NCBI GenBank assembly: GCA_051362555.1
Contig: CM120640.1
Span: forward strand, 32,693,967 to 32,757,966
Reading direction: 5' to 3'
Source: Lingula anatina
Taxonomy: Eukaryota; Animalia; Brachiopoda
Length of the DNA stretch: 64,000 bases
The notes under the pieces were generated by a model. It made no database searches, was not told the DNA's origin, and saw nothing but the letters and a program-made list of their open reading frames with translations. This document shows positions 58,201-61,200 of this stretch, in pieces; the stretch's first letter is position 1; every line of letters begins with the position of its first letter. A program made the position numbers and the translations under genes.

Positions 58201-61200
58201 AAAGAGGCAAACTGCCACACAGCTTAAGCAAATGTATGCAAAACAAAAAGCACAAAGAAAACTCAAGACAAGGATTTTCCCATTTTATCCTGAAAAAGAT
58301 ATTTATGAGCCGTAAGTCAAACAATTAGTCTTATTGTGAACTGCAAGCCTCTATTTGGTTTAGAACAAGGAATCAAAAACCTCAATTTTCGTAACTTTTT
58401 CAGAGTCACAATTTTCAAATCATTACCCTGAGGTAGATGTGAAATATTTTTACTTGATTTCTATTTCTTCTCTTTTAGAGGTTCAGATTCCTCATAAACC
58501 AAATCATGTAACAATTAAGGTAAAAGCAAAGCTATCGCAAGAGGAAAAACAAACTGCCAAAAATTGATATATCTAGATAAACAAACACTGAGTGAAAAGT
58601 GCCCAATACAAACATCCACAAGTTCAAATGATCTGCACATATAACCATTTGATATCAATAAATCAGAAATAAACATGTCACTCCACTTCTAGTGCCAAGA
58701 TGAAAAAGAAGATAAAACAAAGACATCTAAAACATTCCTGGTCGGGGTATCACGTGCTCCTCCCTAACAGCACTTTGTGAAATAACCTGAAATTTCTGCC
58801 AAAAAGTGCTGCACAGTCATGCAACAGAAACAGGTTCTACTGTATGAACACATAAAATGGCACATTCATGCAATTAATAAAAAGAAAAGAAAGAAAAAAA
58901 AAATACACGCATATTCAGCCACATGCCCAAAACCAAAGTGTTACCTATGGCTGGATTGATGAATCGTAAGAAAATAACAGTTCCGATAACTGTCCAAACG
59001 GCTTCCGGGGCACTTTGCTGAAACCTCTGTGTGACCACCTGGTACAAACAGTGACACATGCTCCGCAGTTTAGGAGGGAACCTGCCAATGATAATCCACG
59101 CTGACAAGTTACATTGGTGAAGCAACTTTTATGACAAAACTCTTGGCAGGGACTGGACTTCAAATAAGATACTATCTGCAGAAAAGTGGACACATGTAAC
59201 ATGCCTATAGACCATACATCCCCCCCCCCCCCTCTTATCTGTGTATATTATTTTCAAGATATAAATTATGGTCACATCATAGCACTGGTAAAATGTCCAC
59301 ATTTCCAGCAGTGTGTATCAAGTCCTATCCCTGCCCAGGACATTACCTAGAGCTGGGTTGATAAAACGGAGAAATATCACAGTTCCAACAGCTGCTGTGG
59401 CAGAATCTGGAAACCTGCAGCTAACAACTTGATTCAAACAATGGCACATGTTGCGTAACTGGGGAGGGAACCTGGAATCAATACATATTTACAGATAGGT
59501 GGCGATACTGCAGAAGGGGATCACAACAGACCTCTGGGTCTTTCTTCTACAGGATGGTCAAAATTTTCTTGAAATCCCACCATGTAAAAAAGGTGATTTG
59601 ATTTCTGAATTAACCTAAAGAGAGTGTCATCCCTGATGGTTGGATCCGCCCGTACACTAAAGCCACACTAGAATGTTTATTGGTTTAAGCATATAATTAC
59701 TTATCTTAGAAAAAAGTCAGGTCTTAATAATGAACAGAGAATGAAAATGTTTTCTTTTTTGCCACTTGATTACTAAGCAGAAAAAAATCTGCAAAATATA
59801 TGATTTGAATTCTTTATAAAAACCATTTCACCAGAATTCTACAATTGCATGTTCTATCACCTGTATAAAGTTGTCGCTCTACCAGAAAATATAACTTCTA
59901 TCAACATGTCATGGGGGAAAAACTCAAACAATACGTGCTAAAAAATTTGTCAAAAAAATTAAAAAAGCCCCATGCCCAAAGGAAAAAAATCTGTAACCAA
60001 TATCTGACGAAATATTTAACATACTGAAAAAGCACAGAGAACAATTTTCTACCACAATATAAAGCATCACTGCAAAACTTACTTTTGGGAAGATGCCATG
60101 ATGGCATTGAATACCTTCTGTGTCAACAGCATGAGATGTCTTCGATTGTCTTCAATACTTTCGCACCCTTCCAACCTAGAAGGCGGTTTCATATATATAA
60201 CCTGGGTACATGTATAAATATACTTACATGTATAAATATATGAATACATGACTGAAAAATCTTCTTTAAAAAACAGAATAAATCTTTTAATAGCAGGATT
60301 TTTTTTCACACACCTGAAGGTTCTGGTACACAAATCCCAATATAATCCACTTGTTACTTTTTCTCCTAACCATTTATTTTAAAATACTTTTATAAAGCTC
60401 GCATTAAAATCTAAATATCCCACCTTGCTGGGTCCACTTCATATGAAACACACTGCTTATCAGACATGAACATTTCCTCCAGATACGGGCTGAGAAGCTC
60501 ACGCAGGTATTTCTGCCCATACATCTTGAAGCAGAACGCCATGATTTTGCTGGCCAAACTGTTGCCTCGAAACAAAGTCTGCATGCAGTCAGCGACTTCA
60601 ACCTGATGTAACAAAGAATATTTACATCTAAAATACAAATGCCACAGGAAAATCATCAATATCAAAATTAATATAAACCTTGGCATAACATTAAAACTGA
60701 AACAAATATAATTTATCCTCAGAGCTTGTCATTATGAAACATTTCTTTCAATCTTACTGGGACAATAAATAATGAGAAAAAATTCAGTGTAGAAGGATGC
60801 ACTTGCCTCTTTGGAAAACATGTTCCATAATAACTGGTACAGCAAGTGCTTGGCATCAAATAGCGTCACAAATACACGGGCTAGCTCATCCTGATTAGCA
60901 AAACATAAAAAATATAAAGAATTTATGGAATCATCAATACATTCTATACATTCTATACATGCAGACTTCTACAACTAACAAATTTACATGAAACAAGCAA
61001 ATCATCAAAAAAGATAGCCAAATGGAAAAATAAGCATTTTAAGTCTTTGTATTCTTAGTATTGGTACATGAATAGGACAGGAAAGAGAGTCAAGGGCCAT
61101 CTTTTTCCATGTCTCACCATGTGCTGTGTAGATACCACAGAGGCTAAAGCCATGGCAATGGGAAGCTCTCCCTTGTCTCCTATCATGGTCACTAGTTCTA

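Follow-up and report, generated by a model that had tools for sequence, protein, structure and literature searches.

Two ancient, alternatively used neurofibromin exons of Lingula anatina and a predicted RNA stem in the intron between them: a possible static clamp on splicing

How two adjacent versions of one exon are kept out of the same messenger RNA is the question raised by the neurofibromin (NF1) locus of the brachiopod Lingula anatina. The window, i.e., the whole stretch of 64,000 nucleotides analysed, carries on its minus strand, from about 64,000 to 43,200, a gene whose exons are identical to the Lingula anatina protein XP_013381612 at 2,012 of 2,150 aligned positions (overhangs included), the second-ranked species reaching 78%. 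An initial annotation of this DNA had proposed that competing RNA structures between the duplicated exons, namely A and B, form a riboswitch-like selector with two states, one blocking A-to-B splicing and freeing the B acceptor, the other hiding the B acceptor and freeing the A donor. The features concerned are gathered in Table 1. Two Lingula NF1 models on different scaffolds (P0160 and P0322) differ at 1 of 2,798 residues and likely represent two haplotypes or a recent duplicate. By their motifs, neighbouring frames are presumably an RGS-domain (AKAP10-like) exon (657-1271, minus strand), a single-exon glycosyltransferase (6706-8214, minus strand), a separase (about 9400-23600, plus strand) and an LHFPL-type membrane protein (38182-38538, plus strand).

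Table 1. Coordinates in the window of the A/B exon pair, its flanking exons and the elements of the intervening intron.
Feature	Position	Strand	Basis or remark
Constitutive NF1 exon 5' of the A/B pair, ending in phase 2	60083..60175	-	RNA joints 60173/60422 and 59469/60081, each with cut +2
Exon A, 125 nt, 41 codons (ancestral length)	59347..59471	-	In both RefSeq Lingula models; upstream and downstream RNA joints
A-B intervening intron, 265 nt, GT..AG	59082..59346	-	
Long stem, 5' arm (confident part 59335-59293)	59293..59338	-	Fold prediction
Nested inner stem, 59285-59267 with 59216-59201, plus loop	59201..59285	-	Loop has a 13-nt G run, 59232-59220
Long stem, 3' arm	59142..59193	-	Base 59150-59143 also complements the exon B acceptor
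Small predicted hairpin with putative branch site, A at 59109	59106..59128	-	Branch use inferred
Exon B acceptor octamer, pairing with 59150-59143 in the alternative fold	59081..59088	-	AG and protein homology
Exon B, 137 nt, 45 codons	58945..59081	-	Homology and B-to-downstream joint, 4 reads
Constitutive NF1 exon 3' of the A/B pair	57716..57890	-	RNA joints 57890/58945, 57890/59347 and 57443/57714

That the two exons are duplicates was borne out: adjacent to each other, encoding homologous peptides and each 2 mod 3 in length (125 and 137 nt), they constitute a genuine, expressed and alternatively used pair, either exon being joined in RNA to the next one. This evidence comes from four of nine available raw-read runs of the same species label, where joints were listed only from at least 3 reads upwards. 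The joint from the upstream exon to A is supported by 12 reads, that from A to the downstream exon by 7 reads in three of the four runs (X12, X18 and X14) and that from B to the downstream exon by 4 reads in one run (X15). At this threshold and at the low depth of the four runs, neither an A-B joint, nor a skipping joint, nor an upstream-to-B joint is listed, and the position of the B acceptor therefore rests on its AG and on homology; the A-B intron itself is covered in X12 at a depth of 1.5-2, i.e., by about two fragments. Both RefSeq models of Lingula use A and lack exon B. Inclusion of both exons brings a stop at codon 87 of 87, skipping of both a stop at codon 4 of the following exon, and either frame-shifted product would thus be a target for nonsense-mediated decay, an established pathway that presumably also serves Lingula NF1. 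The A/B pair, itself old, is a probable new member of the class of tandem mutually exclusive exons; a literature search conducted mostly outside the subscription journals found no description of the pair.

The exon pair is ancient and predates by far the stem considered below. In RefSeq, isoforms of both A and B type are annotated in nine mollusc genera, namely Ruditapes, Octopus, Mytilus, Haliotis, Patella, Gigantopelta, Babylonia, Pomacea and Mya; pectinids and pulmonates showed B alone, as did the nemertean genera Lineus and Tubulanus, whereas Ridgeia, Lamellibrachia and Owenia showed A alone. A stands upstream of B in 16 out of 78 metagenome loci (15 distinct), to which the overlap of L068 with L034 adds one more. 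In a tree built on 45 columns, the 16 B peptides all group together (97/92) and A is not separated from the single outgroup exon, the simplest reading being that one old duplication lies behind the pair; exon B exhibits a 4-residue insertion common to lophotrochozoans. Several variants of this arrangement were encountered: in four loci (L001, L003, L012 and L015), the upstream exon is followed by B after about 105-130 nt, which leaves no room for A; L075 has A without B; exon A is longer at its N-terminal end, by about 5 residues, in annelid-like loci, in P0161 and in siboglinids; and 5 residues are added after B in 12 of 15 isoforms of Lineus.

Functionally, the A/B stretch corresponds to residues 1357-1397 of human NF1 isoform I, in the Ras-GAP domain, for whose catalysis the arginine of the FLR motif matters. 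The match to the human 2,839-residue isoform stops after residue 1374, at the place of exon 23a. According to PMC7692384, vertebrate exon 23a sits within the NF1 GAP domain, where the same stretch is alternatively spliced; that exon, however, is a 21-residue cassette insertion, whereas Lingula swaps a whole exon of 41 or 45 residues.

The intervening intron is, as annotated, a GT..AG intron of 265 nt (59346-59082). A long stem is indeed predicted in it, with 37 bp between 59335-59293 and 59193-59145, but it does not begin 6 nt after the A donor as had been claimed. It is composed of six helices and a 7-nt bulge, with most pair probabilities predicted at 0.65-1.0. Compared with shuffled sequences, the fold of the whole intron has a z of -2.4 and that of 59141-59340 a z of -4.4, none of 200 shuffles being as low. 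When the donor end was tested against the acceptor end for duplexes over the 41 NF1 junctions, 27 introns could be ranked (11 were too short and 3 were skipped), and the A-B intron came first (z about -5.0, -62 kcal/mol). Second by z is the constitutive NF1 intron 56073-55760, with an end-bridging stem from the donor (z -4.0, -33 kcal/mol), which provides a natural control for the steric idea. The suggestion that apparent mismatches are G-U pairs on the transcribed strand was sound, with 6 such pairs against 1 on the other strand (long-range pairs, P>0.5), worth about 13 kcal/mol against less than 1, even though this 6:1 ratio is a small count on a G-rich transcribed strand; Watson-Crick-only stem energies are equal between the strands (-58.1 and -59.9). 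The long G run (C run at 59220-59232) does lie in the loop, over 13 nt, yet it is not singular, two similar runs being present elsewhere in the window.

About 37 unpaired nt had been reckoned between the A donor and a branch site UGUAAC; this motif is present in the intron, with its A at 59109, but the predicted folds give 40-46 nt, because the first pairs of the stem stand at +9 or +12 and the claimed outer pairs are not formed. More precisely, the outermost predicted pair in the intron-only fold is 59338-59142, at +9 from the A donor with a 40-nt linker, and the confident helix starts from 59335, at +12 with a 46-nt linker. Folding would thus reduce the distance from the A donor to the putative branch site from some 237 nt of sequence to 40-46 nt. 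The putative branch site lies in a hairpin of its own, 59128-59122 with 59112-59106, paired with a probability of 0.75, and of over 0.9 in wider contexts. As the AG at -21 would then be too close for use, A 59109 fits as branch site. A distant branch point near the A donor, of the type seen in OGDH, was discarded, since at least 8 AGs lie downstream of such a site. In PMC7969005 and PMC5740500, the limit of steric donor-to-branch interference is set at about 50 nt of linear spacing. For the yeast A complex, the modelling of PMC12350175 requires of a stem no fewer than 42 linker nt and a start no closer than 10 nt to the donor; zipper stems mostly aid splicing, according to that paper. The extended form (+9, 40 nt) fails these zipper limits and the confident form (+12, 46 nt) passes them, hence the sign of the effect of the stem is not readable from sequence; as modelled, a spacing of 40-46 nt is the edge between blocking and helping.

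The reading we tentatively prefer, at somewhat less than even chances, is that the stem is a lineage-specific static clamp against A-to-B joining, acting atop frame-shift surveillance. The stem would fold during transcription, before the B acceptor exists, and would leave the predicted short linker from the A donor to the putative branch site, the latter and the B acceptor each sitting in a small predicted hairpin. This cramped spacing would hinder joint U1/U2 assembly across the intron and weaken exon B, any A+B product that leaks through would be cleared by nonsense-mediated decay, and the choice of A or B would be set by splicing factors. In favour of the clamp, both exons are spliced with no A-B joint listed, double inclusion and double skipping both end in premature stops, the stem stands out by its z, by its first rank among the NF1 introns and by its G-U bias towards the transcribed strand, and the spacing falls under about 50 nt, with the extended form outside the A-complex limits; to be set against this are the confident helix, which passes limits within which stems usually help splicing (PMC12350175), the comparable stem of a constitutive NF1 intron, and an A donor spanned by just 7 reads in front of a branch site that is itself putative.

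As regards precedents, alpha-tropomyosin is a known case of mutually exclusive exons governed by steric interference. In Dscam exon 17, a two-exon cluster, Yue et al. reportedly described in 2013 steric hindrance and RNA structure in combination, with structures said to be shared across insect orders and examined through mutations; unlike them, the Lingula stem is predicted only and is conserved in none of the lineages reached. The OGDH exons 4a/4b, as presented in PMC7969005, share with Lingula the tandem duplicated exons, the short intervening intron and an effective spacing near or under 50 nt, but the distance in OGDH is short in sequence via a distant branch point, whereas the one in Lingula is short only if the stem forms. 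Unlike such a steric case, the introns orthologous to that of Lingula NF1 are not length-restricted (566-2,159 nt).

Nearly as likely as the clamp is that the stem is a neutral, decayed palindromic insertion, either an old MITE or a local inverted duplication, exclusivity being ensured by frame-shift surveillance together with protein regulators. At the DNA level, the arms do align as a degenerate inverted repeat, spanning about 80 columns and interrupted by indels, and the non-transcribed strand folds as well (z -5.2); the 6:1 G-U asymmetry and the first rank of this intron among 27 of NF1 speak against neutrality. The window has other foldbacks: of its 167 local folds, the 45 lowest in energy were tested, and a lower z than that of the stem was obtained for four, two of them copies of a TA-flanked palindromic element. 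These copies (24479-24743 and 36064-36332) are about 90% alike, form a near-perfect 265-nt palindrome and resemble, we assume, a young Tc1/mariner-type MITE; two more strong, single-copy foldbacks outside NF1 are found at 28813-29020 and 34292-34501 (z -5.1 and -6.2). A coarse scan in 100-nt steps missed the register of the stem and gave a z of -5.9 (12 shuffles) for a window in another NF1 intron, an overlapping window giving -2.8 (30 shuffles). No second copy of the stem occurs within the 64-kb window, no target-site duplication is evident by eye at the ends of the arms, and RNA depth over the element is 1.6, 0, 0 and 0 in the four runs, without loose ends, so that little RNA seems to come from other copies; single copy and near absence of reads tell against a repeat that is both young and abundant, though not against an old one. 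No intronic variants are listed in the RNA reads.

The age of the exon pair, far greater than that of the stem, also suits a neutral insertion, as do the orthologous introns. The conserved pairing sought there was not encountered, the stem being present in none of 16 orthologous A-B introns (15 annelid-like and 1 bivalve-like), all of distant lineages, in which exclusivity therefore needs no stem. The best end-bridging z is -2.3 in the 15 annelid-like introns (566-2,159 nt) against about -4.9 in Lingula, and 0.2 in the bivalve-like intron of 1,947 nt; two near-identical loci (L030 and L031) have a partner of acceptor B near the donor (z -2.1 and -2.4), the other 13 having none. Since, following PMC5740500, such structures are rarely conserved across long distances, these 16 introns are too distant to be decisive against a local structure. 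In search of a closer relative, a metagenome scan gave distant lineages only and viral and prokaryote collections gave none, while a protein search with exon A and its in-frame intron read-through gave 1 match, at 69% identity, with no common intron part. What is conserved in the annelid-like introns is not pairing but linear motifs, located downstream of exon A and upstream of exon B, which point to protein regulators. Within the first 200 nt after exon A, these blocks comprise a CUG run, a AAACUGCUUC block and, at about +55 to +85, a word resembling CUAAC (loci L005, L008-L010, L017, L018, L022 and L024-L031); their UGCUUCAC word is met again in the intron of Lingula, at 59124-59117, and we presume them to be possible MBNL/CELF/STAR sites. 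Apart from this intron, 59391-59380 in exon A and 57963-57952, i.e., 62-73 nt before the downstream acceptor, are perfectly complementary over 12 bp, or 15 when wobble is allowed (-24.8 kcal/mol), as happens in about 2% of shuffles; with the latter site, the paralogous stretch of exon B forms a weaker pairing (-17.3), and no positional counterpart was found in 7 loci with the downstream exon, 1 of which holds exon A.

The second structure of the initial annotation is real as a complement: CCUGCCAA at 59150-59143 fully complements UUGGCAG/G at 59088-59081, across the B acceptor. It raises a further explanation, unlikely in our estimate, in which, as in human ATE1, the 5' arm and the B acceptor compete for the base of the 3' arm, and the outcome governs the availability of B without any ligand. 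An 8-bp complement of the acceptor arises in 1.5% of 20,000 shuffles of the tail, and none of 60 shuffled tails matches its occupancy at either 37 or 25 C; the alternative fold lies 0.5-2.3 kcal/mol above the main one and its helix extends to 17 predicted pairs, so that 59150-59145 has two mutually exclusive partners of similar energy. In the 301-nt context, cooling from 37 to 10 C raises the share of the alternative from 0.10 to 0.67. This trend is nonetheless gone in two of three wider contexts, on which ground an RNA thermometer was rejected, and predicted occupancy varies with context from 0.03 to 0.32. The site was moreover picked after the fact, the best duplex of the acceptor within the intron is at chance level (z -0.33), and a paired AG alone means little, as 49 of 60 shuffled tails have one. 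The swap is limited to the base of the stem, the inner stem being kept and the branch hairpin persisting in both states.

Predicted opening energies further fail to support the reciprocity on which a two-state switch depends, neither predicted state exposing one exon while repressing the other. The short hairpin was said to free the A donor, yet opening that donor takes 4.5-6.4 kcal/mol in the alternative state as compared with 4.0-5.2 in the main one; the long stem was said to free the B acceptor, for which 4.2-7.3 kcal/mol is still needed in the main state. In the alternative state, donor A, acceptor A and donor B are as costly to open as in the main one, or costlier. Exon A is masked in no state, therefore the two folds are not a docking/selector pair. 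In PMC7797038 on ATE1 exons 7a/7b, the competition of R1R3 with R3R4 likewise has one element pairing with an upstream partner or with the acceptor region of the downstream exon, but nothing in Lingula masks the acceptor of exon A as R1 does there. The main stem, complete before the acceptor is transcribed, would also be kinetically favoured. Within the clamp, the acceptor pairing would be a minor side fold, which can only add to the repression of B.

Less likely still than an ATE1-like balance is that the stem works as a zipper or spacer, aiding splicing across or around the intron, or keeping the exons compact so that the pair is skipped as a unit when A is chosen. With a 46-nt linker, a start at +12 and 35 nt from the branch, the confident helix is within the limits given in PMC12350175, and a constitutive NF1 intron has a similar stem; yet aided A-to-B splicing would yield a frame-shifted product, and no A-B joint is listed. 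Yeast zipper stems likewise connect donor and branch sides within a single intron, but what they mostly help is the splicing of constitutive introns (PMC12350175), whereas the stem of Lingula lies between exons not to be joined and at the lower spacing limit. As for riboswitch, snoRNA and miRNA readings, they fall with the Rfam search, which at E up to 10 gave 5 weak matches and none within the intron: eukaryotic TPP riboswitches (PMC7404189) likewise place alternative intronic folds near splice sites, but need a ligand-binding aptamer, and the epithet riboswitch-like, for which no ligand is at hand, was given up.

More speculatively, and at long odds, a palindromic insertion may have been co-opted in lingulids as a near-isoenergetic, possibly temperature-sensitive switch gating the exon B acceptor and tuning Ras-GAP at the spot of exon 23a, the exon pair itself being older than the split of molluscs, annelids and brachiopods. 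If the stem works, it would offer a compact test of steric block by an RNA stem rather than by short sequence distance, its spacing of 40-46 nt falling right at the modelled limit. Beyond the stem, lophotrochozoans and vertebrates have independently subjected one and the same part of the NF1 GAP domain to alternative splicing.
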